Positions 1,313 through 32,655 of a DNA stretch of 34,161 bases are shown here, piece by piece. The translations under genes and the position numbers were made by a program. Origin of the DNA: a virus. Its lineage: Duplodnaviria; Heunggongvirae; Uroviricota; Caudoviricetes. The stretch's first letter is position 1, and every line of letters starts with the position of its first letter. The stretch lies in the IMG/VR virus record IMGVR_UViG_2534681675_000021; one strand, 5' to 3'. The notes under the pieces were generated by a model. The model was not told where the DNA came from. It saw only the letters and a program-made list of their open reading frames with translations, and ran no database searches.

Positions 1313-1339
1313 AAAAAATAAGCCCGTGTAAGGGAGATT
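1313..1339. other. attL core (27 bp, AAAAAATAAGCCCGTGTAAGGGAGATT)
   Basis: Exact 27-bp direct repeat of 32629-32655, about 80 bp from the int stop. Matches the P2 att core as I recall it. Confidence 0.85.
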
Positions 1340-1418
1340 TAGGGTGTCACCAGTAGGGGCTTTCAACGGTACAATGCGGGTTTGAGCGGCATAAATTACC
1401 ACTGAAAGCCCTTAAACG

Positions 1419-2432
1419 TTACTCTACTGTGGACACTGTGTGGACACTCTCGACCTCAGTACCACCTCTTAGCGGATTAAGAGAAATGGCGTCCTGAAGG
1501 TACTCTGGCGCAAAATGAGCGTAAACCATAGTTTGCTCAATCCGCGTGTGACCTAGTATCCGTTGTAGCGTGATAATACTTCCTCCATTAATCATGAAAT
1601 GAGTGGCAAAGCTGTGCCTTAGTGCATGTGTAGCTTGCCCCATTGGCAAATCCGGTTTTATTGCTTTCATTGTTCGTCTGAAGCGAGGGTAATCAGCATC
1701 AGGGAATAAAAAACCTCGTTTGTTATCCGCGATCATTTTGGCAACAGCCTCTGAGATCGGGACGGTGCGTGGTTTGTTTGTTTTCGTTTTAACAAACGTG
1801 ACGCGGTTATGGATGATATTTTCTGCTTTCAAACGAGCTGCTTCTCCCCAACGTGCTCCAGTACTCAGGCAAAGAATCGCAATCTTTTTGTTGTCGCCGT
1901 CAAGAGCAGCAAGCAGTAAGGCAATTTCTTCCTGCGTGAGATAGCCTGTGTCTGGTTTTTCCTCCTTAAGCCTTTTTGTCCCTCTGATAGGGTGCTCACC
2001 AAAGAATAACTCCGCTTCAATCAGGGCTGTAAACATGCCGCTAATACATGTTAAATCACGATTGATACTCGAAGGTTTAATACCCTGACTTCTTCGGGTG
2101 GCGCAGTACTGGCTGATAAGCGATTTCGTAATTTGAAATGCGCATGGGTCATTCGTTATTTTTGTGAAGATTTCAATTTTTCCAAGATTAGATTTCCCAT
2201 GCTCTTCGTGTTTACCCTTTAAATCCCACCAGATCTGTGTCAGCTCCGACAGACGTCGCTTGTCTTTTGGTTTTGATAGCCATTCTTTATTGTGGTGGTT
2301 GTACAACGTGTATTTCTCGAAAGCGACAGCTTCGCTTTTCTTATCAAACTTCCTACGGATGCGTTTTCCATTACGTCCAGTAGGGCGGATGTCCACTTCA
2401 TATCGACCATCATCGAGTTTTTTGATTGCCAT
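1419..2432 (-). CDS. int: P2-type tyrosine integrase, 337 aa
   Basis: 337 aa; C-terminal catalytic region with HALRHSFATHFMINGGSIITLQRILGHTRIEQTMVYAHF (R...HxxR...Y tyrosine recombinase signature); adjacent to attL. Confidence 0.95.
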   Translation of the reverse strand: MAIKKLDDGRYEVDIRPTGRNGKRIRRKFDKKSEAVAFEKYTLYNHHNKEWLSKPKDKRRLSELTQIWWDLKGKHEEHGKSNLGKIEIFTKITNDPCAFQITKSLISQYCATRRSQGIKPSSINRDLTCISGMFTALIEAELFFGEHPIRGTKRLKEEKPDTGYLTQEEIALLLAALDGDNKKIAILCLSTGARWGEAARLKAENIIHNRVTFVKTKTNKPRTVPISEAVAKMIADNKRGFLFPDADYPRFRRTMKAIKPDLPMGQATHALRHSFATHFMINGGSIITLQRILGHTRIEQTMVYAHFAPEYLQDAISLNPLRGGTEVESVHTVSTVE

Positions 2433-2547
2433 CAGAAAACCCTCCGAGTGGTGTGTTTTTTTGCGACTACTAATCGCTTTTTTCGTGGTGGCTGAAATTT
2501 AGCCACCAATAGTAGGCACTTGTGATGAATATATTCACGATGAATTG

Positions 2548-2847
2548 TTAACCAGTCTTTTGACCGGAGTGGGGCGACGTTGTTTCGTTTTGCCCAAAGT
2601 GTGCGAGAGCGGGCGCAATTTGCCCGGACTCAGGAGCGATCTGATTGGTCATGAACCATAAAGTGTATTTGGTGAATTGTGGGGTCTGCAGGATGTTCAT
2701 CATGACATCTGTTGGAGGTGTTGAACGACCACTTTCATAGTAACTCAGCGTGCCATACGGAACCCCTGTTAAATCAGCAAGTTGTTGTCTGCTCAAATAC
2801 TCTGATTTTCGCATTAAGACTATCTTCTCGCTTATCGTGTTTGACAT
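2548..2847 (-). CDS. C: Immunity repressor C, 99 aa
   Basis: 99 aa, divergent from cox, helix-turn-helix-like segment LSRQQLADLTGVPYGTLSYYESG; position and length as P2 C. Confidence 0.9.
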   Translation of the reverse strand: MSNTISEKIVLMRKSEYLSRQQLADLTGVPYGTLSYYESGRSTPPTDVMMNILQTPQFTKYTLWFMTNQIAPESGQIAPALAHFGQNETTSPHSGQKTG

Positions 2848-2880
2848 GGTGTTTAGATCTCAATAGTATTTAGTTTAGAT
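2841..2880 (+). promoter_or_regulatory. Early promoter Pe candidate (TTGACA 2841-2846, 17-bp spacer, TAGTAT 2864-2869) with two direct 8-bp repeats GTTTAGAT (2851-2858, 2873-2880) flanking the -10; probable C operator
   Basis: Seen directly in the C-cox intergenic region. The direct-repeat operator flanking the -10 is the known P2 arrangement. Confidence 0.55.
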
Positions 2881-2961
2881 GTAGATTGTTTAGTGCTTGG
2901 ATGTGGGCACTAAAAGGCATTATAAGACATTAAACGCAATTCATGAGGGCTAGAGGACGAC

Positions 2962-3237
2962 ATGAGCAAGCAAGTAACACTCATGACTGATGCGATTCCT
3001 TATCAGGAGTTCGCAAAACTAATAGGAAAATCGACAGGAGCGGTTCGTCGGATGATCGATAAAGGAAAGCTGCCTGTAATTGATATGACCGATCCACAAT
3101 CAGCTTCAGGTCGTGCAGGTGAATATTGGGTATACCTTCCGGCATGGAATAACGGACTAAAACTGGCTTATGAAAGCCGCCCTAAAGAGATTCGTGACGG
3201 CTGGTTGATGTGGTTAGGTCTCGGTGAACCACGTTAA
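2962..3237 (+). CDS. cox: Cox (excisionase and repressor of Pc), 91 aa
   Basis: 91 aa, first gene of the early operator-distal transcript; length and position as P2 Cox. Confidence 0.9.
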   Translation: MSKQVTLMTDAIPYQEFAKLIGKSTGAVRRMIDKGKLPVIDMTDPQSASGRAGEYWVYLPAWNNGLKLAYESRPKEIRDGWLMWLGLGEPR

Positions 3238-3418
3238 GGAGAACCGTATGAATGAGCCTCGTTGTATTGCTCAGTTACTGCGTAACGAAAGCCCCAGGGC
3301 GATTGACTTCACCATCACCCACGGTAAGGGGCGTAAGGGAATCATTATCCGCACCAAAAAACAGAGTCCGTTAAAAAAGGCTCTGACCTTTCTGAAAAGC
3401 CGGAGGGTATGGAAATGA
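3224..3418 (+). CDS. Small early protein (P2 orf78 position), hypothetical
   Basis: ORF between cox and B in the early operon, overlapping the cox stop; start uncertain. Confidence 0.4.
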   Translation: MNHVKENRMNEPRCIAQLLRNESPRAIDFTITHGKGRKGIIIRTKKQSPLKKALTFLKSRRVWK

Positions 3419-3915
3419 CAGTGATGACGCTCAATCTCGTTGAAAAACAGCCAGCAACTATGCGCCGGATAATTGGTAAGCATCTGGCCGTCCCTCGCTG
3501 GCAGGAGACATGCGATTATTATAATCAGATGATGGAACGCGAACGGCTAACGGTTTGCTTTCATGCGCAGTTAAAACAGCGTCACGCAACGATGCGTTTT
3601 GAAGAAATGAACGACGTCGAACGTGAACGACTGGTTTGTGCAATTGATGAATTGCGTGGGGCATTCTCAAAACGCCGTCAGGTTGGCGCAAGTGAGTATG
3701 CATATATTAGTTTTTTAACAGTCAGTCAGCGCCGTACTTTATTTATGCACGCACGACTGACAGAAAAAGAATTTAACCAGCCATACTGGCGAATTAATGA
3801 GGAATCATGTTACTGGCGTGATGCTTTATTCCGTGCATTACGTGAATTATTCAGTCTGTTTGAGTATGCACCGACAATTCTGACATCGGTAAAACCAGAG
3901 CAATATCTGCATTAA
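3415..3915 (+). CDS. B: Replication protein B (helicase-loader-like), 166 aa
   Basis: 166 aa from MTVMTLNLVEKQ; position and length as P2 B. Confidence 0.85.
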   Translation: MTVMTLNLVEKQPATMRRIIGKHLAVPRWQETCDYYNQMMERERLTVCFHAQLKQRHATMRFEEMNDVERERLVCAIDELRGAFSKRRQVGASEYAYISFLTVSQRRTLFMHARLTEKEFNQPYWRINEESCYWRDALFRALRELFSLFEYAPTILTSVKPEQYLH

Positions 3916-3978
3916 GTAATTAACCAGAGTTTTTAACGCACTTAATTGTGCGGGGCTTCTTTTTGCCTGGAGAAAGTC

Positions 3979-4203
3979 ATGCATACAGTTTCTGAAAATG
4001 AGTGCGGTAAATACGCATTACTGCTGCAACAGGCCAGAACCGAAGCACAGGCCGATGCAGCGACGCGCTTTTCTTCTCATCTTGACGCCATGATTCGCCA
4101 CATCACAAAGGCGGAGTTATCCCGCGTGGAGATAGTCGAGCTGCTCAGTCAGGAGTCGGAAAAATTTCACAATATCGGATTGTCTCGCGGGGAGGTGCTT
4201 TGA
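3979..4203 (+). CDS. Early-operon small protein (orf80-like), hypothetical
   Basis: Shine-Dalgarno GGAGAAAG before ATG 3979; compact early-operon gene. Confidence 0.5.
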
Positions 4204-4505
4204 TGTCCTGTTCTCGTTCGGTTGTATTACTGAATAACGCCTTAAAAATCGCCGTTATGAAAAATGGCGATTTATCTCTTATTCAACTTGGTCTTGATAA
4301 AGAAAAACGCGAAATAACTGAGTCTGTTATCGCGATTTATCAGAGCGAATTAAATCTCCTGTCTGATGTGGTCAATTTACTTGTTAAACGCGCTGTATTT
4401 CACAAGCAAATCTCCTCCGTGGATGAACTGACGAAATTAACGACAGAAATTGCCAGCTATTGCGCTGATGAATTTAAAAAACTTAACGACAAAAGGAGCT
4501 GGTAA
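4200..4505 (+). CDS. Early-operon small protein (orf81-like), hypothetical
   Basis: GGAGG Shine-Dalgarno; overlaps the upstream stop, consistent with translational coupling. Confidence 0.5.
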
Positions 4506-4729
4506 TGCCGGACAACGTAGATTTTATTCAGGAACAACAGGCTGAATTACTGGAGCGTCAGATTAACGCGGCAAGGGTAAAACATTGCGGTGCTTCTGCG
4601 CTGGTTTGCGAAGAGTGTTACGCGCCAATACCTGCTGCCCGTCGTGCGGCTTATCCGTCAGCCACGCGTTGTGTTTCCTGTCAGTCAGTCTTTGAAGCAA
4701 AAAACAAACATTACCGGAGAACGGCATGA
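4505..4729 (+). CDS. TraR/DksA-family C4 zinc-finger protein (orf82-like)
   Basis: C-x2-C ... C-x2-C motif (CEECYAPIPAARRAAYPSATRCVSCQ); AGGAG Shine-Dalgarno; ATG overlaps the upstream stop. Confidence 0.6.
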   Translation: MPDNVDFIQEQQAELLERQINAARVKHCGASALVCEECYAPIPAARRAAYPSATRCVSCQSVFEAKNKHYRRTA

Positions 4730-5001
4730 GTATTCGTATTGAAATTGGCGAACGTTATGTCGTTACCAGTGACAGCTTTCAGTTTATTCTCCACGAGAAA
4801 AAGAGAGCGGAAAGCGGTAAAAACGCCGGTCAGGAATGGCTGGCAGTGGTTGGTTATTACCCGAAATTAAGCCAGCTCGTTTCCGGCATGATGCATCACG
4901 ATATTCTGACCGGAAGCGCAAAATCTTTTGCTGATTTAAACGCGCAGGTTGAGCAACTCAGCAAGCGTTGTTCAGAGGCTTTTGGCTCACATGGCCGTTA
5001 A
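4726..5001 (+). CDS. Early-operon small protein (orf83-like), hypothetical
   Basis: ORF immediately upstream of A, overlapping neighbours. Confidence 0.5.
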   Translation: MSIRIEIGERYVVTSDSFQFILHEKKRAESGKNAGQEWLAVVGYYPKLSQLVSGMMHHDILTGSAKSFADLNAQVEQLSKRCSEAFGSHGR

Positions 5002-7276
5002 AGCCTCCGGGCGTTTTGTCCCTCCGTCAGCATTTGCCGCAGGCACCGGTAAGGCGTTTACCGGTGCTTATGCATGGAACGCGCCACGCGAGGCTGTCGG
5101 GCGCGAAAGACCACTTACACGTGACGAGATGCGTCAGGTGCAAGGTGTTTTATCCACGATTAACCGCCTGCCTTACTTTTTGCGCTCGCTGTTTACTTCA
5201 CGCTATGACTACATCCGGCGCAATAAAAGCCCGGTGCACGGGTTTTATTTCCTCACATCCACTTTTCAGCGTCGTTTATGGCCGCGCATTGAGCGTGTGA
5301 ATCAGCGCCATGAAATGAACACCGACGCGTCGTTGCTGTTTCTGGCAGAGCGTGACCACTATGCGCGCCTGCCGGGAATGAATGACAAGGAGCTGAAAAA
5401 GTTTGCCGCCCGTATCTCATCGCAGCTTTTCATGATGTATGAGGAACTCAGCGATGCCTGGGTGGATGCACATGGCGAAAAAGAATCGCTGTTTACGGAT
5501 GAGGCGCAGGCTCACCTCTATGGTCATGTTGCTGGCGCTGCACGTGCTTTCAATATTTCCCCGCTTTACTGGAAAAAATACCGTAAAGGACAGATGACCA
5601 CGAGGCAGGCATATTCTGCCATTGCCCGTCTGTTTAACGATGAGTGGTGGACTCATCAGCTCAAAGGCCAGCGTATGCGCTGGCATGAGGCGTTACTGAT
5701 TGCTGTCGGGGAGGTCAATAAAGACCGTTCTCCTTATGCCAGTAAACATGCCATTCGTGATGTGCGTGCACGCCGCCAGGCAAATCTGGAATTTCTTAAA
5801 TCGTGTGATCTCGAAAACAGGGAAACCGGCGAGCGCATCGACCTTATCAGTAAGGTGATGGGCAGTATTTCTAATCCTGAAATTCGCCGGATGGAGCTGA
5901 TGAACACCATTGCCGGTATTGAGCGTTACGCCGCAGCAGAGGGTGATGTGGGGATGTTTATCACGCTGACCGCGCCGTCAAAGTATCACCCGACACGTCA
6001 GGTTGGAAAAGGCGAAAGTAAAACCGTCCAGCTAAATCACGGCTGGAACGATGAGGCATTTAATCCAAAGGATGCGCAGCGTTATCTCTGCCGTATCTGG
6101 AGCCTGATGCGCACGGCATTCAAGGATAATGATTTACAGGTCTACGGTTTGCGTGTCGTCGAGCCACACCACGACGGAACGCCGCACTGGCATATGATGC
6201 TTTTTTGTAATTCGCGCCAGCGTAACCAGATTATCGAAATCATGCGTCGCTATGCGCTCAAAGAGGATGGCGACGAAAGAGGAGCAGCGCGAAACCGTTT
6301 TCAGGCAAAACACCTTAATCGGGGCGGTGCTGCGGGGTATATCGCGAAATACATCTCAAAAAACATCGACGGCTATGCACTGGATGGTCAGCTCGATAAC
6401 GATACCGGCAGACCTCTGAAAGATACTGCCGCGGCTGTTACTGCATGGGCGTCAACGTGGCGCATCCCGCAATTTAAAACGGTTGGTCTGCCGACAATGG
6501 GGGCTTACCGTGAACTACGCAAATTGCCTCGCGGCGTCAGCATTGCTGATGAGTTTGACGAACGCGTCGAGGCTGCACGCGCTGCCGCAGACAGTGGCGA
6601 TTTTGCGTTGTATATCAGTGCGCAGGGTGGGGCAAATGTTCCGCGCGATTGCCAGACTGTCAGAGTCGCCCGTAGCCCGTCGGATGAAGTTAACGAGTAC
6701 GAGGAAGAAGTCGAGAGAGTGGTCGGCATTTACGCGCCGCATCTCGGCGCGCGTCATATTCATATCACCAGAACGACGGACTGGCGCATTGTGCCGAAAG
6801 TTCCGGTCGTGGAGCCTTTGACTTTAAAAAGCGGCATCGCCGCGCCTCGGAGTCCTGTCAATAACTGTGGAAAGCTCACCGGTGGTGATACTTCGTTACC
6901 GGCTCCCACACCTTCTGAGCACGCCGCAGCAGTGCTAAATCTGGTTGATGACGGTGTTATCGAATGGAATGACCCGGAGGTCGTGAGGACGCTCAGGGGG
7001 GCATTAAAACACGGCCTGAAAACACCAAATCGTCAGCAAAGAAACGGAAGCCCGTTAAAACCACATGAAATAGCACCGTCGGCCAGACTGACCCGGTCGG
7101 AACGATTGCAAATTACCCGTATCCGCGTTGACCTCGCTCAGAACGGTATCAGGCCGCAACGATGGGAGCTTGAGGCGCTGGCGCGTGGCGCGATCGTAAA
7201 TTCTGACGGGAAAAAATTCACGTATCCGGTCGCTGATGAGTGGCCGGGATTCTCAACAGTAATGGAGTGGACATAA
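4991..7276 (+). CDS. A: Replication initiation protein A (rolling-circle nickase), 761 aa
   Basis: 761 aa from ATG 4991 (the track start at 4949 is a TTG). Length and position as P2 A. Confidence 0.85.
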   Translation: MAVKASGRFVPPSAFAAGTGKAFTGAYAWNAPREAVGRERPLTRDEMRQVQGVLSTINRLPYFLRSLFTSRYDYIRRNKSPVHGFYFLTSTFQRRLWPRIERVNQRHEMNTDASLLFLAERDHYARLPGMNDKELKKFAARISSQLFMMYEELSDAWVDAHGEKESLFTDEAQAHLYGHVAGAARAFNISPLYWKKYRKGQMTTRQAYSAIARLFNDEWWTHQLKGQRMRWHEALLIAVGEVNKDRSPYASKHAIRDVRARRQANLEFLKSCDLENRETGERIDLISKVMGSISNPEIRRMELMNTIAGIERYAAAEGDVGMFITLTAPSKYHPTRQVGKGESKTVQLNHGWNDEAFNPKDAQRYLCRIWSLMRTAFKDNDLQVYGLRVVEPHHDGTPHWHMMLFCNSRQRNQIIEIMRRYALKEDGDERGAARNRFQAKHLNRGGAAGYIAKYISKNIDGYALDGQLDNDTGRPLKDTAAAVTAWASTWRIPQFKTVGLPTMGAYRELRKLPRGVSIADEFDERVEAARAAADSGDFALYISAQGGANVPRDCQTVRVARSPSDEVNEYEEEVERVVGIYAPHLGARHIHITRTTDWRIVPKVPVVEPLTLKSGIAAPRSPVNNCGKLTGGDTSLPAPTPSEHAAAVLNLVDDGVIEWNDPEVVRTLRGALKHGLKTPNRQQRNGSPLKPHEIAPSARLTRSERLQITRIRVDLAQNGIRPQRWELEALARGAIVNSDGKKFTYPVADEWPGFSTVMEWT

Positions 7277-7728
7277 TGGCAAAAATTCACGAGTTAAAGC
7301 TGCACGCAAAATATTTCGACCTTGTGCTGGAAGGAAAGAAACGCGCAGAGTTTCGGAAAAATGACCGTAATTATGAGCGCGGGGACACGTTGATTTTGCA
7401 TGAATGGGTGCAGGGTGTGTATACGGGGCGAAAGGTTGAAGCCCGGATAACAGATGTTACTGACCTGTCAGACTGGCTGGAAGATTATGTCTTGCTAAGT
7501 ATTGAGCGGCTTAATACAGGCGCATATGAGATTGTGAACTGGAAAGAACTTAGTGAGCGTGGTCTGGTATTCAGAATTAATCATGAAATTATGCATCAGC
7601 TCGGCCTTGCTGTTATGTATGAATCAGAGACGGGGATGTCTGGCGGGGCAATGGTAGCCACGGATGGAGCATGGAACTATTCAGATGAACAGATGGAGCG
7701 TGCAAAGCAAAACGGGTGGCTTGGATAA
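7276..7728 (+). CDS. ASCH/DUF3850-like protein (P2 orf91 position), 150 aa
   Basis: ATG overlaps the A stop (TAATG). N-terminal KIHELKLHAKYFDLVLEGKKRAEFRKNDRNYERGDTLILHEW resembles the DUF3850/ASCH signature. Confidence 0.6.
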   Translation: MAKIHELKLHAKYFDLVLEGKKRAEFRKNDRNYERGDTLILHEWVQGVYTGRKVEARITDVTDLSDWLEDYVLLSIERLNTGAYEIVNWKELSERGLVFRINHEIMHQLGLAVMYESETGMSGGAMVATDGAWNYSDEQMERAKQNGWLG

Positions 7729-7934
7729 TGCACAGAATACCAGGCGAGATACCGCACCATAAAACTAAAAATATCAAGCTGATGGCTATTGTTCAGCGTT
7801 TACAGCGGATTATGGTCAACGAAAATCTGACGCCCGATGAGCTGGTCGGGTGTGCCGAAATAGTACGGGATAATTACGGGCGGCTTAACTATATCGGTCA
7901 GTCCAGAGTTGCGCCACCACCACGCAGACGATAG
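7716..7934 (+). CDS. Small hypothetical protein, about 70 aa
   Basis: ORF overlapping the end of the previous gene; no recognisable motif; could be non-coding. Confidence 0.3.
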   Translation: MAWIMHRIPGEIPHHKTKNIKLMAIVQRLQRIMVNENLTPDELVGCAEIVRDNYGRLNYIGQSRVAPPPRRR

Positions 7935-8157
7935 AGAACGCCGCCAGTCGTGAAACTTGTTTTCAGGGCTGGCGGGGTTGAACAACGAGCGAAGCGAGAC
8001 GTTAGTTGACAGACATATTTTTACTACGTTGGTGCTGGTTTTTGACGGTTGAAAGGAGTTAGGTTGGAGAGCTAACAACTTACAAATATTCAAAAGTAAG
8101 CATCCTGTTGCTAACATGAGGTTGATTTTTTATGTGGATGATGCAAAAAGGATAGCT

Positions 8158-8889
8158 ATGGATACTATAATCGCTTTTCTATCACTCGCTTTTTTCGTTG
8201 CTTTCTTCATCGGGCTAATCAAGCCATCACTGGTGCGAATGCCAAACCGCAAACGTGCAAGTGCGGTTTATCTCGGAGGAGGTTTTGTATTGAGCATAAT
8301 TGGTTCAATACTCTATCCAACAGAAAAAAGCCAGCCAGTTGCTAAAACTGAAACATCAACCGTTGCAGAACACAAAGTCCAAAAAACATTCGAATATGGT
8401 GAAAAAACACTCAAGGAATATCGGAACGAGTCAAAGAAAACACGACACGATATTGTGAATAGTTACATTGATTTTAAGGAAGTTCCAGCCACCGCGTCAG
8501 ATGCGTTTTATGCCTGCATGAGTGAGTATACATTTACCAAAGATGATGAGTTGAAACTCGGTGATGTTCTTGGGTGGTGCTTTAATGATTATGAAAATGA
8601 CCCGAGTTCACTAAACAATAAAATCAATCTTGATACATTTCAGAGTAATTTTAGTGGTTGGGATGGTTCTTATCGTCCATTGGAAAAACTAATTAAAGAT
8701 AATATGAACGATGATTCATCTTATAAACATGTGTCAACGGTATATCATCTGGTTTTGAATAAAGACCCGCATGCCATTGTGAAAACCACGTTTCGCGGAA
8801 CTAATGCTTATGGCGGAGTGGTGAAACAGACGATTGCTGCGCGTGTCAATGTAGAAACAGGTGAGGTTGTATCAATTATAAGTGAGTGA
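8158..8889 (+). CDS. Cargo protein 1: membrane-anchored protein of unknown function (two predicted N-terminal TM helices, about 180-aa soluble C-terminal domain)
   Basis: AGGA Shine-Dalgarno 7 nt before ATG 8158 (an alternative ATG at 8116 has no SD). Strongly AT-rich relative to the phage backbone. Hydrophobic segments IIAFLSLAFFVAFFIGLI and AVYLGGGFVLSIIGSILY. Occupies the P2 tin/old position. Confidence 0.6.
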   Translation: MDTIIAFLSLAFFVAFFIGLIKPSLVRMPNRKRASAVYLGGGFVLSIIGSILYPTEKSQPVAKTETSTVAEHKVQKTFEYGEKTLKEYRNESKKTRHDIVNSYIDFKEVPATASDAFYACMSEYTFTKDDELKLGDVLGWCFNDYENDPSSLNNKINLDTFQSNFSGWDGSYRPLEKLIKDNMNDDSSYKHVSTVYHLVLNKDPHAIVKTTFRGTNAYGGVVKQTIAARVNVETGEVVSIISE

Positions 8890-8910
8890 ACTGTGCCAGA
8901 ATGATAAAGA

Positions 8911-8930
8911 TGCCAGCATTTATGCTGGCA
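8911..8930. other. Intergenic hairpin (TGCCAGCA-TTTA-TGCTGGCA) between the two cargo genes
   Basis: Perfect 8-bp inverted repeat with a 4-nt loop, seen directly; function unknown. Confidence 0.3.
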
Positions 8931-8987
8931 ATCATAAAAATAGTGACTAGCAAAAATTGGTGTCTGGTTTTAATGTGAGATTAGAAA

Positions 8988-9686
8988 ATGAAGAGATGTA
9001 AATATATTTTAAGAGGTTTGTTGCTGAAGTTTAAAAGTATAAGTTCTATGCATTTGTTATTTGTTTTAATAACGGCTTGTCTATTCTTTTTTATAGGGTG
9101 TTACGTGGGTTATAGTGGTATTGGTTTGAATGGTGACACTAAATACCAATTAATTACAATACCTTTTTTGACCATGTTGGGTACTTGGGTTTCTGGGGTG
9201 GGAGCATTTTCTGCTGTTGCGACATCATTGTTGTTGGCACACCGTTCGCTAAAGGAAAATTCAGAAGAAATTGCTATTCGATATAGCATGGTGTTAATAC
9301 CATCAATGTACTTACCTAGCACTACAGATACAGCAATATCAATAACCATAACAAACAAAAGAAAAGTAAGGAGTAATATTCAATCGGTTGTTTTGCAATT
9401 TTCTAATAATAAAGCAATGAATATATGGGTAAACCCCGGGACGCTTATCTCTGGCAAGTTACCGCATGTTTTAGAAGACTATGGTGATATATTGATGCTT
9501 ATAATTCCAGAGAGCATTACCGCATCAGTAACTGATGAGGGGTTCGTAAAAGAATGTCAGGGGAATACTCTTGGAGAAGGTAGCGTCGTAGTTCACACAA
9601 CGACAAAAACATTTGTAAAAAAATTAACATTACCTCAAGTTAAGCCATTTAATGATAAATTTAAGTCTGTATTGACGAAGCCGTAA
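8988..9686 (+). CDS. Cargo protein 2: membrane-anchored protein of unknown function (two predicted TM helices, about 150-aa soluble C-terminal domain)
   Basis: AT-rich; hydrophobic segments LLFVLITACLFFFIGCYVGY and ITIPFLTMLGTWVSGVGAFSAVATSLLLA; same strand and spacing as cargo gene 1; no recognisable catalytic motif. Confidence 0.6.
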   Translation: MKRCKYILRGLLLKFKSISSMHLLFVLITACLFFFIGCYVGYSGIGLNGDTKYQLITIPFLTMLGTWVSGVGAFSAVATSLLLAHRSLKENSEEIAIRYSMVLIPSMYLPSTTDTAISITITNKRKVRSNIQSVVLQFSNNKAMNIWVNPGTLISGKLPHVLEDYGDILMLIIPESITASVTDEGFVKECQGNTLGEGSVVVHTTTKTFVKKLTLPQVKPFNDKFKSVLTKP

Positions 9687-9811
9687 GAGGTGCGTTGCGT
9701 TGCATTTTTTTGCATCTTCAAGGATTAATTTCTGCATCTTTATTTTGCCAGTACTGATGTGCTTTTAATGGACTCATGCAACTGCATTAAAATCGACCCA
9801 TGAAGCGGGCG

Positions 9812-9830
9812 GGCGAGGCGGGGAAAGCAC
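9812..9830. other. cos site candidate (19-nt cohesive-end sequence GGCGAGGCGGGGAAAGCAC)
   Basis: Matches the P2/186 cohesive-end sequence as I recall it; lies in the GC-rich non-coding region next to portal gene Q, as in P2. Confidence 0.55.
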
Positions 9831-9972
9831 TGCGCGCTGGCGGTGGTGCTGATTTTATTTTTTCAGCGTCTCAGCGCGTCGTAATGGCGTTTAGATTGTG
9901 CGCCGGGGCGCTGGTGTGTCTGCGGGCTGTTTTGTGCGGTGGTGAGTGTGTGAGGGCGTGATGACGGGGTGT

Positions 9973-9999: not shown

Positions 10000-11034
10000 T
10001 CAGCCGTTGTCAGTGTCCAGTGAGTAGTTTTTAAATCGGATGACCTCCTGACCGAGCCAGCCGTTTATCTCGCGGATCCTGTCCTGTAACGGGATAAGCT
10101 CATTGCGGACAAAGACCTTTGCCACTTTTTCAATATCACCCAGCGATCCGACGTTCTCCGGCTTGCCACCCATCAACTGAAAGGGGATGCGGTGCGCGTC
10201 CAGCAGGTCAGCGGCGCTGGCTTTTTTGATATTAAAAAAATCGTCCTTCGTTGCCACTTCACTGAGCGGGATAATTTTAATGCCGTCGGCTTTTCCCTGC
10301 GGGGCATAGAGAAACAGATTTTTAAAGTTGTTGCGGCCTTTCGACTTGACCATGTTTTCGCGAAGCATTTCGATATCGTTGCGATCCTGCACGGCATCAG
10401 TGACGTACATGATGTATCCGGCATGTGCGCCGTTTTCGTAATACTTGCGGCGGAACAGCGTGGCTGACTCATTCAGCCAGGCAGAGTTAAGGGCGCTGAG
10501 ATATTCCGGCAGGCCGTACAGCTCCTGATTAATATCCGGCTCCAGCAGATGAAACACGGAGCCGGGCGCGAAAGGTGTCGGCTCGTTGAAGGACGGCACC
10601 CACCAGTAAACATCCTCCTCCACGCCACGGCGGGTATATTTTGCCGGTGAGGTTTCCAGTCTGATGACCTTACCGGTGGTGCTGTAACGCTTTTCCAGAA
10701 ACGCATTACCGAACACCAGAAAATCCAGCACAAAGCGGCTGAAATCCTGCTGGGAAAGCCACGGATGCGGGATAAATGTCGAGGCCAGAATATTGCGTTT
10801 GACGTAAATCGGGGAGCTGTGATGCACGGCAGCACGCAGGCTTTTTGCCAGACCGGTAAAGCTGACCGGTGGCTCATACCATCTGCCGTTACTGATGCAC
10901 TCGACGTAATCCAGAATGTCACGCCGGTCGAGTACCGGTACCGGCTCACCAAAGGTGAATGCCTCCATTTTCGGGGCGCTGGCGGTCATTGTTTTTGCCG
11001 CAGGTTGCGGTGTTTTCCCTTTTTTCTTGCTCAT
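10000..11034 (-). CDS. Q: Portal protein Q, 344 aa
   Basis: 344 aa; start overlaps the P stop (ATGA); position and length as P2 Q. Confidence 0.95.
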   Translation of the reverse strand: MSKKKGKTPQPAAKTMTASAPKMEAFTFGEPVPVLDRRDILDYVECISNGRWYEPPVSFTGLAKSLRAAVHHSSPIYVKRNILASTFIPHPWLSQQDFSRFVLDFLVFGNAFLEKRYSTTGKVIRLETSPAKYTRRGVEEDVYWWVPSFNEPTPFAPGSVFHLLEPDINQELYGLPEYLSALNSAWLNESATLFRRKYYENGAHAGYIMYVTDAVQDRNDIEMLRENMVKSKGRNNFKNLFLYAPQGKADGIKIIPLSEVATKDDFFNIKKASAADLLDAHRIPFQLMGGKPENVGSLGDIEKVAKVFVRNELIPLQDRIREINGWLGQEVIRFKNYSLDTDNG

Positions 11035-12806: not shown

Positions 12807-12979
12807 GAATACCTCGCCGTGATGAATACACGGCAAGGCTACTGAGTCGCGCCCCGCGATTCGCTAAGGTGCTGTTGTGTCAGTGATAAGCCATCCGGGA
12901 CTGATGGCGGAGGATGCGCATCGTCGGGAAACTGATGCCGACATGTGACTCCTCTAATCACTATTCAGGACTCCTGACA

Positions 12980-13834: not shown

Positions 13835-13892
13835 CCGGCGTCAGTCAGTCCGGGAAAACCTTCACGATTAACCATTAATTTCAGGAAAAACT

Positions 13893-14966: not shown

Positions 14967-14969
14967 CCG

Positions 14970-15713: not shown

Positions 15714-15812
15714 CAACCGAATGCGCCCCGCGCCAGGGCGGCACGCCGGTCAGTGAGGGTGAATCACCTGACACTGCACCGGCGTCCACCGCCCGACTTT
15801 TCAGAGGTAGTC

Positions 15813-16525: not shown

Positions 16526-16528
16526 CGC

Positions 16529-19938: not shown

Positions 19939-20015
19939 TATTTGTTATGTTGTGTCACAGCTGACAGAACCCTCCATGATTGCTGCTGGTATCGTCCAGC
20001 GGCATCCTTCCCGTT

Positions 20016-20995: not shown

Positions 20996-20999
20996 AACC

Positions 21000-22512: not shown

Positions 22513-23816
22513 CAGTGAAATACTACGCCATTCTGACTAATCAGGGCGCAGCACGGCTGGCTAACGCGACGATGCTCGGCAGTAAGCTGAATCTGACGCA
22601 AATGGCCGTTGGTGATGCGAATGGTGTCTTGCCGACACCAGACCCGGCACAGACAAAACTGATTAACCAGAAACGCATCGCGCCGCTGAATCTTCTGAGT
22701 GTTGACCCGAACAACCAGAGCCAGATTATTGCGGAGCAAATCATCCCTGAGAACGAGGGCGGATTCTGGATCCGTGAGATTGGGCTTTATGATGATGAAG
22801 GCGTACTCATTGCGGTGGCGAACTGCCCGGAAACGTACAAACCGCAGTTGCAGGAAGGCAGTGGTCGTACCCAGACTATCCGCATGATTCTGGTTGTCAC
22901 GAATACCGAAGCTATTACGCTGAAAATCGACCCGTCGGTGGTACTGGCGACCCGTAAATACGTGGATGATGAAGTCCTGGAATTAAGGCTGTATGTGGAT
23001 GACCAGATGAGAAACCACATTGCCGCACAGGATCCTCATACCCAGTATGCACAGAAACATAATCCGACATTTACCGGAGAACCAAAAGCGCCGACGCCTG
23101 CCGCAGGGAATAACACCACGCGGATTGCGACCACTGAGTTTGTTCAGGCCGCTATTACCGCTCTGATTAACGGTGCGCCAGCCACGCTGGACACACTGAA
23201 AGAAATTGCCGCAGCCATTAACAATGACCCGAAATTCAGTACCACCATTAACAATGCGCTGTCAGGTAAGCAGCCACTGGATGAGACGCTGACTCATTTG
23301 AGTGGAAAGGATGTTGCCGGTCTTCTCGCATACCTTGGTTTGGGAGAAGGCTCTGCATTACCTGTTGGTGTGCCTGTTCCATGGCCTTCAGCCACACCGC
23401 CAACAGGCTGGCTGAAATGCAACGGTGCGGCTTTTTCTGCTGAAGAATACCCGGAACTGGCAAAGGCTTATCCGACAAATAAATTGCCTGATTTACGTGG
23501 TGAGTTTATTCGTGGCTGGGATGACGGGCGCGGTATTGATGCAGGACGTGTTTTATTGAGCATTCAGACAGGGATGCTGGAAAAACACCGCCATATTGTT
23601 GTTGCCAATGATGGTTACGACACAAAAGATGAATGGGAACTGGCTACGATTTTCAAAAAGACATACACACAAGGACGGGGACTTGATGCCGCAAATACAG
23701 GAGGGAGTCTGATCCCATCACCGACACTTCATTCACGAGGGAGTATCGGTAATACTGGCGGGAGTGAAACCCGTCCACGAAATATTGCATTTAACTATAT
23801 CGTGAGGGCTGCATAA
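22509..23816 (+). CDS. H: Tail fibre protein H (constant N-terminal part plus currently expressed variable C-terminal part), 435 aa
   Basis: Position as P2 H; the C-terminal third lies inside the invertible segment, downstream of the crossover site at 23323-23348. Confidence 0.85.
   Translation: MTVKYYAILTNQGAARLANATMLGSKLNLTQMAVGDANGVLPTPDPAQTKLINQKRIAPLNLLSVDPNNQSQIIAEQIIPENEGGFWIREIGLYDDEGVLIAVANCPETYKPQLQEGSGRTQTIRMILVVTNTEAITLKIDPSVVLATRKYVDDEVLELRLYVDDQMRNHIAAQDPHTQYAQKHNPTFTGEPKAPTPAAGNNTTRIATTEFVQAAITALINGAPATLDTLKEIAAAINNDPKFSTTINNALSGKQPLDETLTHLSGKDVAGLLAYLGLGEGSALPVGVPVPWPSATPPTGWLKCNGAAFSAEEYPELAKAYPTNKLPDLRGEFIRGWDDGRGIDAGRVLLSIQTGMLEKHRHIVVANDGYDTKDEWELATIFKKTYTQGRGLDAANTGGSLIPSPTLHSRGSIGNTGGSETRPRNIAFNYIVRAA
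23323..23348. other. Left recombination (crossover) site of the tail-fibre invertible segment, inside H
   Basis: 26-bp sequence TTCTCGCATACCTTGGTTTGGGAGAA is 21/26 identical, in inverted orientation, to 25191-25216, including a shared GGTTTGGGAGAA half-site that encodes G-L-G-E in both fibre reading frames. Confidence 0.6.
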
Positions 23817-24418
23817 TGGATAACGCCGTATTAAATAGCGAGCTTATTGCCACGAAGGCGGGGAATATTACCGTCTATAACTATGATGGTAAAACTCGGG
23901 AATATATTTCTACTTCAAATGAATATCTTGCCATTGGTGTCGGTATCCCTGCATATTCCTGTCTGGATGAACCTGGTATACATAAGGCGGGTTATGCTAT
24001 CTGCCGTTCGATGGATTTAAACTCATGGGAATATGTGCCAGACCATCGCGGTGAAATCGTCTATAACACCGAAACGGGAGACGCCAAAGAAATCACAGCT
24101 CCGGGTGATTATCCTGAAAATACAACCACTATCGCCCCGTTAACGCCATTCGATAAATGGGATGGTAAGAAATGGGTGACCGATACTGAGGCACAGCATA
24201 GCGCCGCAGTAGACGCGGCAGAAGCACAGCGTCAGTCACTGATTGATACTGCAATGGCTTCCATCAGTCTGATTCAACTGAAATTGCAGGCCGGGCGGAA
24301 GCTGACGCAGGCAGAAACCACCCGACTTAACGCTGTGCTGGATTACATTGACGCGGTGACGGCAACAGATACGAGCACCGCGCCGGATGTCATCTGGCCT
24401 GAACTGCCGGAGGCGTAG
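23816..24418 (+). CDS. G: Tail fibre assembly chaperone G, 200 aa
   Basis: ATG overlaps the H stop; position as P2 G. Confidence 0.8.
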   Translation: MDNAVLNSELIATKAGNITVYNYDGKTREYISTSNEYLAIGVGIPAYSCLDEPGIHKAGYAICRSMDLNSWEYVPDHRGEIVYNTETGDAKEITAPGDYPENTTTIAPLTPFDKWDGKKWVTDTEAQHSAAVDAAEAQRQSLIDTAMASISLIQLKLQAGRKLTQAETTRLNAVLDYIDAVTATDTSTAPDVIWPELPEA

Positions 24419-24830
24419 GCCATTCAATATCTGGCGCACCGGAAGTATCGACCAGTTCCAGTGCGTCCAGGTAATCCAGCCACAAATTATATTGCGCCAG
24501 TTCGTCACCTTTCAGACGACCAATAGCCGCTTTACCAGGCCATTGTTTACTGTTCATATAATCGTTGGCCTGATTAATCAATTGCTGCTTCTCCAGTTCG
24601 GCTGCAGCAATTTGTTCCTCATGTGTTGGTGGTGGAATTTCGGACCATGCAGGAAAACCATTTTCTCCAGCGATACGGATTTTTCCTTTCGGCGGTAATC
24701 CGGAAAACTCAATATACACTTGCTCATCAACTTCAACAGCATCATCTGGCCATGAGTCAGCTTGAGTGTAATCCTCTTTCATCTCCAGCGGATAGAAAGA
24801 GTTTGTAGTCGCGGAATATATGTAATTCAT
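24390..24830 (-). CDS. Alternative tail fibre assembly chaperone (G'), 146 aa, inverted orientation
   Basis: Convergent with G and overlapping its 3' end; C-terminus (...WLDYLDALELVDTSGAPDIEWPTPPA) parallels the G C-terminus (...VLDYIDAVTATDTSTAPDVIWPELPEA). Confidence 0.7.
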   Translation of the reverse strand: MNYIYSATTNSFYPLEMKEDYTQADSWPDDAVEVDEQVYIEFSGLPPKGKIRIAGENGFPAWSEIPPPTHEEQIAAAELEKQQLINQANDYMNSKQWPGKAAIGRLKGDELAQYNLWLDYLDALELVDTSGAPDIEWPTPPAVQAR

Positions 24831-24851
24831 TTTTCACTCCATATAGCTAAA

Positions 24852-25244
24852 TTAACAGCCTAACGCTAAAAATGAAGCGCCGAGGCCAGGAGTACTGGCT
24901 CTGGATATAAATTTAACCGGGTCGGGACTAAAACCTGCACAGGCAATATAACCAACAGCCCCGCTATCTGGTGTATAGTCTTGTGAGACCAAAACACGCA
25001 GACATCTGTTTGGAAATGCAATTGGGAAATGGGTTACTACATCCTGTGCAATGCCTGGAGCGCCGATTGAGCCCCACTGAAGAATAAAACCTGATGGTAA
25101 TTTTTGATATCCAGTACCTGAAACAGAAAGCGTGAAGCTACCCATATCAGGTATCTGATTCGCCCCTGTCCCTACATTCCTTTTAGCCGCTTCTCCCAAA
25201 CCAACGTTTATGAAAATGCAGAGATAACGGGCAACTGGCATCAT
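24852..25244 (-). CDS. Alternative tail fibre variable C-terminal segment (Hv'), silent in this orientation
   Basis: Minus-strand ORF directly upstream of G'. It contains the shared G-L-G-E junction encoded at the right crossover site; it would fuse to the constant part of H after inversion. The annotated Met is probably not a real start. Confidence 0.6.
25191..25216. other. Right recombination (crossover) site of the invertible segment
   Basis: TTCTCCCAAACCAACGTTTATGAAAA, an imperfect palindrome resembling hix/gix-type sites and an inverted repeat of 23323-23348; lies just upstream of the invertase gene. Confidence 0.6.
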
Positions 25245-25265
25245 CTCCGGTTTTTATTCAGGGGG

Positions 25266-25865
25266 ATGCTCATGCTTATTGGCTATGTACGCGTGTCAAC
25301 AAATGACCAGAACACGGAATTGCAGCGTAACGCGCTGGAGTGCGCAGGATGCGAGCGGATTTTTGAGGATAAAATCAGCGGCACGAAGTCCGACCGACCG
25401 GGACTGAAAAAACTGCTCAGAACATTATCAGCAGGTGACACTCTGGTAGTCTGGAAGCTGGACCGGCTGGGGCGTAGTATGCGGCATCTGGTCATTCTGG
25501 TTGAGGAGCTGCGCGAACGCGGCGTTAATTTTCGCAGCCTGACAGATGCTATTGATACCAGCACGCCGATGGGGCGTTTTTTCTTTCATGTGATGGGTGC
25601 CCTGGCTGAAATGGAGCGAGAACTCATTGTCGAGCGGACACGCGCTGGACTGGAAGCGGCCAGAGCCAAAGGGCGTATTGGTGGCAGACGTCCGAAGCTC
25701 ACCGCGAGTGAGTGGGAGCAGGCCGGGCGGTTGCTGGCTGCGGGGGAATCTCGTCAACGTGTGGCGCTGATTTTTGATATTGGCCTGTCCACGCTCTATA
25801 AAAAATTCCCCTCATCAGCGACAAAGAATAAATTGTGTCATCCCTTAGCCAACCGGGACAAATAG
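25266..25865 (+). CDS. Serine DNA invertase of the Hin/Gin/Cin/Pin family, 199 aa
   Basis: N-terminal MLIGYVRVSTNDQNTELQRNAL (catalytic Ser in YVRVST) and overall strong resemblance to e14 Pin as I recall it; C-terminal helix-turn-helix; adjacent to the invertible fibre segment. Confidence 0.9.
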   Translation: MLMLIGYVRVSTNDQNTELQRNALECAGCERIFEDKISGTKSDRPGLKKLLRTLSAGDTLVVWKLDRLGRSMRHLVILVEELRERGVNFRSLTDAIDTSTPMGRFFFHVMGALAEMERELIVERTRAGLEAARAKGRIGGRRPKLTASEWEQAGRLLAAGESRQRVALIFDIGLSTLYKKFPSSATKNKLCHPLANRDK

Positions 25866-25924
25866 CCTGACATCTCCGGCACAACTGAAAATACCACTCA
25901 CCCATTAACCACGGAGTTAAACGG

Positions 25925-27702: not shown

Positions 27703-27978
27703 ATGAACAAAGAAAATGTCATTACCCTGGACAATCCGGTCAAACGTGGTGAGCAGGTTATCGAACAGGTCACGCTGATGAAACCCAATGCCGGGACGCT
27801 ACGCGGTGTCAGTCTGGCTGCGGTTGCAAACTCCGAAGTCGATGCACTGATTAAGGTGCTGCCGCGCATGACGGCACCGATGCTGACAGAGCAGGAAGTC
27901 GCCGCGCTGGAACTGCCTGACCTTGTGGCGCTGGCCGGTAAGGTGGTCGGTTTTTTGTCGCCGAACTCGGTGCAGTGA
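27703..27978 (+). CDS. E: Tail assembly chaperone E, 91 aa
   Basis: 91 aa; ends just after a TTTTTTG slippery heptamer. Confidence 0.85.
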   Translation: MNKENVITLDNPVKRGEQVIEQVTLMKPNAGTLRGVSLAAVANSEVDALIKVLPRMTAPMLTEQEVAALELPDLVALAGKVVGFLSPNSVQ

Positions 27979-28130
27979 CGTTTCCAAAAAATCTCTCGGT
28001 CGATGACCTGATGGCGGATGTGGCAGTGATATTTCACTGGCCGCCATCAGAACTGTATCCCATGAGCCTGACCGAACTCATCACATGGCGCGAAAAGGCG
28101 CTCCGGCGAAGCGGAAACACGAATGAGTAA
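27703..28130 (+). CDS. E+E' tail assembly chaperone fusion produced by programmed -1 frameshift at TTTTTTG (27951-27957)
   Basis: The -1 frame is open from the slippery site to a stop at 28128-28130 and encodes ...ELITWREKALRRSGNTNE; analogous to P2 E/E' and lambda G/GT. Confidence 0.75.
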
Positions 28131-31064: not shown

Positions 31065-32227
31065 TGCTGGATGCGCTGACATTTGATGCAGGCAGTACAC
31101 TGACGCCGGATTATATGCTGATGCTCGACAGCAGGGATATTACCGGCAATATCAGCGACCGTCTGATGAGCATGACCCTGACGGATAACCGGGGCTTTGA
31201 GGCTGACCAGCTTGATATTGAACTGAATGATGCCGACGGGCAGGTCGGGCTGCCGGTTCGTGGCGCTGTCCTGACGGTGTATATCGGCTGGAAAGGTTTT
31301 GCCCTGGTATGCAAAGGGAAATTTACCGTTGATGAGGTCGAACACCGGGGCGCGCCGGATGTGGTCACCATCCGCGCCCGGAGTGCAGATTTTCGCGGGA
31401 CGCTCAATTCCCGCCGTGAAGGCTCCTGGCATGACACCACGCTCGGTGCGATTGTTGAGGCGATAGCCTCCCGTAACAGGCTGGAAGCCAGTGTCGCGCC
31501 GTCACTGGCAGGAATTAAAATCCCGCACATCGACCAGTCGCAGGAGTCCGACGCGAAATTCCTGACCCGTCTTGCAGAACGCAACGGCGGTGAGGTGTCG
31601 GTAAAAATGGGAAAACTGTTGTTTCTCAAAGCGGGGCAGGGGGTGACGGCCAGTGGTAAAAAAATCCCGCAGGTCACCATCACTCGTAGCGACGGCGACC
31701 GCCATCATTTTGCGATTGCTGACCGTGGAGCCTATACCGGCGTAACGGCAAAGTGGTTACACACCAAAGACCCGAAGCCGCAAAAGCAGAAGGTAAAACT
31801 GAAACGCAAAAAGAAAGAGAAACACCTGCGCGCACTGGAGCACCCGAAAGCGAAACCGGTCAGGCAGAAGAAAGCGCCTAAAGTACCGGAAGCGCGCGAA
31901 GGTGAATACATGGCCGGTGAGGCTGACAACGTTTTTGCCCTGACCACGGTATATGCCACAAAAGCGCAGGCCATGCGCGCCGCTCAGGCGAAGTGGGATA
32001 AACTGCAACGGGGCGTTGCGGAGTTCTCCATCAGCCTGGCTACCGGTCGGGCAGATATTTACACGGAAACACCGGTCAAAGTGTCTGGCTTTAAGCGCGT
32101 CATAGACGAGCAGGACTGGACAATCACTAAGGTGACACACTTTCTGAATAATTCCGGCTTCACGACGTCCTTAGAGCTTGAGGTCAGGCTTTCTGATGTG
32201 GAGTACGAAACAGAAGATGATGAGTGA
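31064..32227 (+). CDS. D: Tail protein D, 387 aa
   Basis: Position and length as P2 D. Confidence 0.9.
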   Translation: MLDALTFDAGSTLTPDYMLMLDSRDITGNISDRLMSMTLTDNRGFEADQLDIELNDADGQVGLPVRGAVLTVYIGWKGFALVCKGKFTVDEVEHRGAPDVVTIRARSADFRGTLNSRREGSWHDTTLGAIVEAIASRNRLEASVAPSLAGIKIPHIDQSQESDAKFLTRLAERNGGEVSVKMGKLLFLKAGQGVTASGKKIPQVTITRSDGDRHHFAIADRGAYTGVTAKWLHTKDPKPQKQKVKLKRKKKEKHLRALEHPKAKPVRQKKAPKVPEAREGEYMAGEADNVFALTTVYATKAQAMRAAQAKWDKLQRGVAEFSISLATGRADIYTETPVKVSGFKRVIDEQDWTITKVTHFLNNSGFTTSLELEVRLSDVEYETEDDE

Positions 32228-32308
32228 TGTTTTTATTTTATCTGTTTGTTTTATAAGGATAAATTAACTAAAATGGCACCATCAACAAAACCGGAAGAGG
32301 TGCTCGCG

Positions 32309-32527
32309 ATGTTTCATTGTCCTTTATGCCAGCATGCCGCACATGCGCGTACAAGTCGCTATATCACTGACACGACAAAAGAGCGTTATCACCAGTGCCA
32401 GAACGTGAATTGCAGCGCCACGTTCATCACTTATGAGTCGGTACAGCGATACATCGTGAAGCCGGGAGAAGTCCACGCCGTAAGACCGCACCCGTTGCCG
32501 TCAGGGCAGCAAATTATGTGGATGTAA
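32309..32527 (+). CDS. ogr: Ogr late-gene transcriptional activator (zinc finger), 72 aa
   Basis: 72 aa from MFHCPLCQHAAHARTSRY; C-x2-C ... C-x4-C zinc-binding motif; GGAAGAGG Shine-Dalgarno; last gene before att. Confidence 0.9.
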   Translation: MFHCPLCQHAAHARTSRYITDTTKERYHQCQNVNCSATFITYESVQRYIVKPGEVHAVRPHPLPSGQQIMWM

Positions 32528-32540
32528 TTACAAACAGGAA

Positions 32541-32564
32541 GCCCCTCAGTCGAGGGGCTTTTTT
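32541..32564 (+). terminator. Rho-independent terminator after ogr
   Basis: GCCCCTC-AGTC-GAGGGGC perfect 7-bp stem followed by TTTTTT. Confidence 0.7.
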
Positions 32565-32628
32565 GTCGATGTGGTCAATGTGTGGACGTGACCAGAAATA
32601 AATCCTTTTATTTCATTGTATTACGCGT

Positions 32629-32655
32629 AAAAAATAAGCCCGTGTAAGGGAGATT
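32629..32655. other. attR core (27 bp), identical to attL core
   Basis: Exact repeat of 1313-1339; lies within the 3' end of cyaR. Confidence 0.85.

Follow-up and report, generated by a model that had tools for sequence, protein, structure and literature searches.

P2 is a classical temperate, non-inducible phage, and Bertani and Bertani reportedly treated it as a non-inducible temperate phage in 1970, to go by their title. Such non-inducible phages are contrasted with SOS-inducible ones such as 186 (PMC7708051); P2 lysogens release phage spontaneously in a process that requires Cox (PMC3936717), and the E protein of P4 binds the P2 repressor C, derepressing P2 (PMC2995052). As a P2-type integration site, cyaR has been tabulated in Escherichia coli W, K-12 (ogr-D′) and B (PMC3032704), and the A-to-Q interval of P2-like phages is a documented hotspot of anti-phage systems (PMC9122126). 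Here, we analyzed a 34,161-nucleotide (nt) stretch of DNA (IMG/VR virus record IMGVR_UViG_2534681675_000021; hereafter the window), in which an earlier note made from the letters alone had placed an intact P2-like prophage at 1313–32655. With a probability of roughly 85%, the comparisons reported below point to a genetically complete Peduovirus with the immunity and integration specificity of P2, residing at the classical P2 site, namely the 3′ end of cyaR in the interval between yegQ/trhP and yegR.

The 42 annotated coding sequences of P2 (NC_001895/AF063097) were translated and searched against the window with tblastn, and 21 backbone proteins were compared residue by residue. The prophage turned out to have the same gene order as P2, being colinear through int-C/cox-B-A, cos, the divergent QP and ONML...RS, VWJIHG, FI-FII-E-T-U-D and ogr, and its backbone DNA was 94.5–97.6% identical across four blocks. 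The backbone genes are listed by window position, strand and content (aa, amino acids):

1419–2432, minus strand: int, tyrosine integrase of 337 aa, 99.1% identical to P2 Int
2548–2847, minus strand: C immunity repressor of 99 aa, 100% identical to P2
2962–3237, plus strand: cox, 100% identical to P2
3248–5001, plus strand: early operon with orf78, B (3415–3915), orf80, orf81, orf82 and orf83, 96.7–100% identical to P2
4991–7276, plus strand: A, rolling-circle replication initiator of 761 aa, 98.2% identical to P2
10000–12806, minus strand: Q portal (10000–11034) and P large terminase (11034–12806), 99.4% and 99.7% identical
12980–19186, plus strand: O operon with O, N, M, L, X, Y, K, lysA, lysB, nested lysC (18015–18305), R and S (18728–19186)
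20016–22512, plus strand: baseplate genes V, W, J and I, the I allele as in phage MET_P1_103_31
25925–32227, plus strand: F operon with FI, FII, E (27703–27978), E+E′ (27703–28130), T, U and D
32309–32527, plus strand: ogr late activator of 72 aa, 100% identical to P2

Full-length, ungapped matches with 94–100% aa identity were obtained for int, C, cox, orf78, B, orf80–83, A, Q, P, O, N, M, L, X, Y, K, lysA, lysB, lysC, R, V, W, J, FI, FII, E, T, U, D and ogr. The 21 proteins compared by residue equaled their P2 counterparts in length, shared the same ATG starts and carried 0–14 substitutions each, and C, Cox, Ogr, orf78, X, Y, K and FII were 100% identical. Int differed from that of P2 by T56K, E161D and A327V, with the catalytic HALRH...LGH...VYAHF region unchanged, and the 96-aa LysC had the lipobox LCAGC and was 95.8% identical to P2 LysC. 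On public contigs, the exact protein alleles of Int, A and H were found 57, 46 and 22 times, respectively. A comparison with P2 proteins, which the earlier note had proposed as a check for frameshifts and premature stops, thus disclosed none in the essential genes.

Homology to P2 is broken at three places, i.e. 7497–9811, ∼18806–20015 and 22338–25844. Divergent proteins were S (54.7% identity, 152 aa), I (82%, 203 versus 176 aa) and H, which was alike in its N-terminal part only (∼42%, 435 versus 669 aa); G had no P2 match in the tblastn search of the window, and a 200-aa Caudo_TAP protein stands in its place. Only the first 75 aa of P2 orf91 were matched, while orf30, fun(Z), tin and old were absent from the window by the search with the 42 P2 proteins. 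The break at 22338–25844, from the end of I to the pF promoter, brings in a new I C-terminus, other H and G alleles and an invertase, and this invertase occupies the fun(Z) slot together with a 1.87-kb invertible tail-fibre segment; the P2 record measures 33.6 kb versus 31.3 kb of the prophage. The claim that all canonical genes are present at their expected sizes consequently held for the essential core and failed for the tail-fibre genes H, G and I; moreover, the non-essential old, tin, orf30 and fun(Z) are missing, the S allele has been replaced and the invertase switch had been overlooked. The differences from P2 are modular, namely a tail-fibre switch plus three accessory slots holding other, uncharacterised genes.

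The termini of the element were determined from its direct repeats and the host gene that they touch:

1313–1339, plus strand: attL core, the 27-bp P2 core; the exact repeat reaches 1 nt further, to 1312
32629–32655, plus strand: attR core; the exact repeat begins at 32628
32632–32717, minus strand: host small RNA gene cyaR, with its terminator loop, 3′ arm and U tract coming from the att core

A repeat finder reported one long-range direct repeat in the window (1305–1339/32621–32655), and direct reading of both sites gave an exact 28-bp repeat, T followed by AAAAAATAAGCCCGTGTAAGGGAGATT, at 1312–1339 and 32628–32655. Because an exact 28-mer repeat in 34 kb has a chance expectation of ∼1e-8 by our own arithmetic, (34161^2/2)/4^28, the repeat was regarded as real. 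Its last 27 bases are the annotated P2 attP core, with 0 mismatches to P2 24356–24383, which confirmed the exact 27-bp core duplication noticed earlier, the exact repeat being 28 bp. Positions 1313–32655 mark the outer edges of the two cores, and one unit of the element amounts to 31,316 bp. CyaR was the only RNA gene found by Rfam (100.7 bits versus a gathering score of 47), and its 3′ end lies inside the attR core. Folding of the minus strand displayed a terminator hairpin, GCCUGUGUAAU/CUCCCU/UACACGGGC, then UUAUUUUUU, of which everything from the final bases of the 5′ arm through loop and 3′ arm to the U tract is encoded by the att core; therefore, integration regenerates the small RNA gene, as tRNA-targeting phages do their target. 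As the sequence shows, recombination by Int took place between the 27-bp attP core and its exact counterpart in the cyaR terminator, so that the core was duplicated and cyaR stayed intact. A tRNA-targeted integration was also considered and was rejected, as the window contains no tRNA gene and the target is the cyaR terminator.

To the right, the host neighbour is yegQ/trhP (32800–34161, an NCBIfam equivalog), and to the left are a yegR-like open reading frame (ORF; 586–972) and an IS2 end (1–456). When the two flanks were joined across one core into a 1,227-bp query and searched against 5,426 complete E. coli genomes, the reconstructed empty site was found uninterrupted and 100% identical over all 1,227 bp in strain MFDS1022581 (NZ_CP169399.1), and at least 80% of the query was covered in 4,565 of the genomes. 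In K-12-type strains, the yegQ-yegR interval has only ogrK and a ‘late control D’ fragment; this ogrK-yegZ (ogr-D′) relic lies at the same site and in the same orientation beside cyaR (PMC3032704), whereas the window holds the whole phage. With a full 31.3-kb genome in this interval, the element is no cryptic remnant, in agreement with the earlier note.

The cis-acting sites were then located by comparison with the annotated P2 ones:

1356–1453, plus strand: Cox-binding region (1356–1429, identical to P2) and Int P′ arm with two TGTGGACA repeats (1427–1453)
2841–2944, no strand assigned: face-to-face promoters Pe/Pc with the direct-repeat operators O1/O2, identical to P2
6829–6869: ori nick region inside gene A, identical to P2
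9812–9830, plus strand: cos 19-nt cohesive-end sequence GGCGAGGCGGGGAAAGCAC, exact
12870–12900, no strand assigned: Ogr activator site of the divergent late promoters pP/pO, identical to P2
32566–32593, plus strand: Int P-arm binding region, identical to P2

Complete identity to P2 was observed for the cos 19-mer, the tQ terminator, the pO/pP activator site, the E frameshift region, the P arm, the core, the Cox boxes, the Pe/O1/O2/Pc block (104 bp), the B terminator and the ori nick region (41 bp). The ogr promoter, the ogr terminator and the P′ arm were one base off P2 each, and the P′ arm mismatch falls outside the two repeats, whose consensus was taken from PMC3448106 and which are both intact. 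Upstream of cos, 45 of 48 flanking positions were identical. The slippery GTTTTTTG of E/E′ (∼27952–27959) is intact, and a −1 frameshift there gives a 142-aa E+E′ as in P2; the E/E′ frameshift, the nested lysC, cos, int and ogr are intact, as earlier asserted. A by-eye fit of the TGT-N12-ACA activator site at pV and pF gave no unambiguous spacing, and identity to viable phages was used instead; pF keeps TTGTG...TTAGCCAACC and is identical there to MET_P1_103_31. All components required for excision are thus in place, both in cis and in trans: given the intact Int motifs, a 100% identical Cox, exact Cox boxes and P arm, intact P′ repeats and identical cores, excision competence of the prophage, another earlier claim, is well supported in silico.

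Based on the near-identity to P2, a complete cycle can be proposed. In the lysogen, C would repress Pe at O1/O2, and lysogeny would be left only spontaneously or upon inactivation of C by a P4-type antirepressor; as C is the P2 allele, which escapes SOS control, no DNA-damage response would be expected. Cox would then shut Pc and, with Int and IHF, release a 31.3-kb circle from attL/attR, on which A would nick the ori within its own gene and initiate rolling-circle replication. In the late phase, Ogr would activate the four late operons, terminase would cut cos, and Y, K and LysABC would lyse the cell.

Module identity was assessed against phages P2, 9W, R18C and MET_P1_103_31, and the matching blocks by window position were:

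1305–9950: phage 9W, 98.4% DNA identity
9812–22331: phage R18C, 97.1% DNA identity, including the S allele, the orf30-slot gene and the pV region
19979–23540: MET_P1_103_31, 97.1% DNA identity
23766–24653: MET_P1_103_31, 90.1% DNA identity
25120–32616: MET_P1_103_31, 95.0% DNA identity, including the invertase and pF

Phage 9W (OM475431) has the same Int specificity, and its 98.4% identity runs from attP via int, the early operon, A, the orf91-like gene and the cargo genes to cos; unlike the prophage, however, it possesses a P2-type long H/G fibre and a P2-like S allele, and lacks the invertase and the orf30-slot gene. The cargo block between A and cos was 98.9–99.1% identical in 9W and in Peduovirus P22H4 (LR595869/NC_049385), the latter accounting for the 99.1%. 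R18C (NC_049461) shares the S allele (97.4%), the 251-aa orf30-slot gene (98.4%) and the pV upstream region, the whole S/orf30-slot block (∼18806–20015) being 98.4% identical, whereas its Int and C are only 50% and 43% identical, its cos hotspot carries a Fic-family cargo and its fibre is of the P2 type. In the Salmonella phage MET_P1_103_31, the invertase, annotated ‘hin’, was 98.5% identical, while the variable fibre ends differ from those of the prophage. Every block, as well as its junctions to the P2 backbone, recurs in some isolated phage, the DNA identities of the modules being 90–99%, and the 31.3-kb genome falls within the 29.2–34.8 kb of the isolated relatives. P2-type prophages at cyaR, a variable cos-proximal hotspot and invertible fibres are all documented, so the element is of a known kind; since each module recurs in isolated phages, it matters little as a discovery and is useful as annotation.

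A prophage of such intact appearance could nevertheless be silently defective (‘grounded’), i.e. blocked in excision or morphogenesis by a missense change, a regulatory change or an incompatibility between modules of different lineages, and the following observations count against the complete-phage reading. The Int substitutions T56K and A327V are seen in neither P2 nor 9W, and A and T carry 14 and 12 substitutions, respectively; in principle, any one of these changes might be harmful. Five mismatches to P2 fall in the annotated IHF region, all of them in the 12 nt that border the attR core on its left; the sequence upstream of pV does not resemble that of P2 and was validated only by its identity to R18C (2 bases differ); the present variable end of H is just 82.6% identical to the nearest isolated phage compared, and none of the four phages compared has a counterpart of the silent fibre end; and a search of 5,426 complete genomes did not find the exact mosaic in one piece, coverage reaching 87% at best. 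Of these, the private Int substitutions, the IHF-region mismatches and the missing one-piece mosaic speak for a silent defect. Yet no essential gene contains a frameshift, stop, truncation or IS insertion, every inter-module junction is also present in some isolated phage, the Int substitutions avoid the catalytic R-H-R-Y region, and the presence of the exact Int allele on 57 contigs suggests a circulating allele; the IHF region differs by 1 nt from that of 9W, which was itself recovered from lysogens. A hidden defect is hence considered unlikely. Still far less credible is a domesticated element that is kept for its cargo or as a tailocin and is no longer viral. The conserved genes of unknown function in the three accessory slots would suit it, but capsid, portal, both terminase subunits, cos, and the replication and integration modules have been kept at 94–100% identity, which would not be expected if the host alone exerted selection, and what decay looks like at the same site is displayed by K-12.

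The earlier note had called the prophage likely inducible and suggested looking for excision after stress. Such induction would call for a 186-type prophage with a LexA-controlled antirepressor Tum or a RecA-cleavable repressor, a reading for which no supporting point was found and to which we give very little credence. Neither a 186-type CI nor Tum was found: the repressor is the 99-aa P2 C, and the early-operon ORFs at 2962–7276 comprise the P2 genes and nothing else, so that a 186-type CI or Tum is not possible there. In addition, neither C and Cox nor the Pe/Pc/O1/O2 switch differs at all from P2 (100% identity), a phage described as non-inducible; therefore, low spontaneous excision and no response to DNA damage would be expected, contrary to the earlier wording. 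Induction by stress is thus likely not to occur, and release would probably be only spontaneous or P4-triggered, with a strong derepression expected from a P4-type satellite. The host is marked as a P2-immune lysogen and as a potential helper for P4-like satellites, because its C and Cox are the P2 alleles to which P4 E and the P4 PLL promoter respond.

The tail-fibre region was resolved into an invertible segment with the following parts:

22509–23816, plus strand: H tail fibre, 435 aa in the present orientation, constant to 23335 and variable over 23336–23816
23323–23348, plus strand: left 26-bp crossover site, TTCTCGCATACC-TT-GGTTTGGGAGAA, inside H
23816–24418, plus strand: tail-fibre assembly protein (Caudo_TAP) of the present orientation, 200 aa
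24390–25203, minus strand: silent alternative set, with an assembly protein (24390–24830) and a fibre C-terminus (24852–25203, Gp53-like_C)
25191–25216, plus strand: right 26-bp crossover site, opposite in orientation to the left one, with AA at its centre instead of TT
25266–25865, plus strand: serine DNA invertase of the Pin/Hin family, probable start at 25272 (197 aa)

The invertase matched Pfam Resolvase (8e-53) and HTH_7 (1e-12), and the exact protein is named ‘DNA invertase Pin-like’ by one source. Pfam likewise placed Phage_tail_fib and Collar domains in H, Caudo_TAP in both 23816–24418 (plus strand) and 24390–24830 (minus strand), and Gp53-like_C in an ORF at 24852–25244 (minus strand). 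The 26-bp pair is the best inverted repeat of the region, and its TT/AA centres are as inversion requires. When 23336–25203 was inverted in silico, H stayed in frame (392 aa) and was followed by a 146-aa chaperone, versus the 435-aa H and 200-aa assembly protein of the present orientation. The layout, i.e. a serine invertase, inverted 26-bp sites and two fibre ends with chaperones, is the one of Pin (e14), Gin (Mu), Cin (P1) and Hin; loci annotated pinE/tfaE, the pinE/tfaE regions of e14 among them, match parts of the segment at ∼96.5% identity, and the P2-like prophage of O157:H43 T22 (KC618326) is a P2-like record that already had such an invertase. The Pin-like invertase would flip the 1.87-kb segment between the 26-bp sites and so join the constant H N-terminus to one of two alternative C-termini. 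As a separate assembly chaperone lies behind each C-terminus, two receptor specificities would be provided; the switch thereby flags two alternative specificities for this lysogen.

Among E. coli genomes, strains PE144 and GPEC1209 carried the present form at 100% and 99.9% identity, respectively, and the inverted form was colinear at 99.9% in GPEC1210 and at 99.1% or more in at least seven further genomes. The GPEC1209 and GPEC1210 matches each spanned 3,001 bp in one piece at 99.9% identity (window 22900–25900; NZ_CM142785.1 and NZ_CM142786.1). Because both orientations occur in natural genomes, the fibre switch is real and operates in nature; it was known before this analysis. GPEC1209 and GPEC1210 come from chickens, bear similar names and have the segment at nearly the same chromosomal coordinates, but in opposite orientations, which makes them a natural snapshot of the switch flipping.

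The other breaks from P2 hold the orf91-like gene and the accessory cargo:

7273–7728, plus strand: orf91-like gene, 151 aa, DUF3850/ASCH plus DUF7415 (the P2 version has 109 aa)
7716–9686, plus strand: A-to-cos hotspot cargo in place of tin/old
7716–7934, plus strand: cargo ORF of 72 aa
8116 or 8158 to 8889, plus strand: cargo membrane-anchored protein of 257 or 243 aa, the 243-aa form from 8158 being more likely
8988–9686, plus strand: cargo predicted membrane protein of 232 aa
19183–19938, plus strand: orf30-slot cargo of 251 aa (probably 246 aa), HNH-like CxxC...EH...N...CxxCN motif, GC content 38%

No Pfam, NCBIfam or PADLOC family was assigned to the 72-, 257/243- and 232-aa proteins or the orf30-slot protein, six cargo ORFs had no PADLOC-DB v2 match at E ≤ 0.01, a PHROGs scan returned only PHROGs of unknown function and no functional family, and a sequence search against the PDB yielded nothing for the cargo proteins. 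The family of the 243-aa protein comprises 180 ‘hypothetical’ homologues across Enterobacterales, in which C120 and C141 are invariant, and its AlphaFold2 model (mean predicted local distance difference test score of 79) shows a pair of transmembrane helices at the N-terminus as well as a helical domain, a four-stranded sheet and a disordered linker; a weak HdeA/Rap1a/Tai4-like fold was also noticed. The family is met repeatedly in P2-like elements: in Serratia, a homologue directly follows the gpA of a P2-like prophage, where the genes downstream are different, and one in Photorhabdus adjoins ogr/D of a P2-like element. The 232-aa protein, in contrast, had 14 homologues among 5.8 billion clustered proteins, all from E. 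coli and all at least 84% identical. An obligate pair of the two was rejected, given the varied neighbours of the 180 homologues of the first and the restriction of the second to E. coli; the 232-aa gene is an orphan moron and not an obligate partner of the gene upstream. For the orf30-slot protein, 44 homologues were collected, in which the residues CxxC...EH..P.W...N...CxxCN are invariant, and no informative fold match was obtained; its gene is co-oriented with S and overlaps the S stop codon, and the start of the homologues corresponds to the GTG at 19201.

As the A-to-Q interval is an anti-phage hotspot, an exclusion function of the cargo is a reasonable guess, and we tentatively suggest that the genes replacing old/tin and orf30 might be undescribed phage-exclusion or superinfection-exclusion determinants, although we hold this to be rather doubtful. 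One of two main candidates would be the 246/251-aa HNH-motif protein at the orf30 slot. Being conserved, P2-associated and without known function, three of the accessory genes are reasonable candidates for anti-phage screens such as those reported for the hotspot (PMC9122126).

Two smaller features were noted in the same interval. P2 homology of the orf91-like protein stops after residue 75, and phage 9W carries the same two-domain form. The 72-aa ORF (7716–7934, plus strand) overlaps a 105-aa ORF on the opposite strand (7800–8117, minus strand), and the two matched different PHROGs of unknown function (4e-39 and 9e-44), with only the plus-strand one annotated in 9W.

Several observations concern the left host flank. 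The stretch just left of the attL core (1240–1311) resembles the phage P arm (TCGATGTGGTCAATG...GAC.GT.ACC...AATCC), with a local alignment score of 24 versus 7.6 ± 1.5 for shuffled sequences (0 of 2,000 reached 24). Because this P-arm-like flank belongs to the empty site in other strains too, the ‘attB’ here resembles a decayed attR left behind by an earlier P2-like prophage, i.e. a shorter version of the K-12 ogrK-D′ relic. The IS2 at 1–456 has an InsC/TnpA ORF on the minus strand (NCBIfam ‘IS2 repressor TnpA’, 4e-83) and a terminal inverted repeat, ...GGAGATTCAGGGGGCCAGTCTA, ending at 456, and host-flank matches in other E. coli start at 457; none of the complete genomes searched had IS2 at the same spot together with the host flank (at least 80% coverage). 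The 128-aa ORF in the yegR position (586–972) had no NCBIfam match and is a ‘hypothetical protein’ in the closest genomes, while most E. coli match this interval at only ∼94–95% identity, with a gap, under the name yegR, indicating a variable allele beside the att site.

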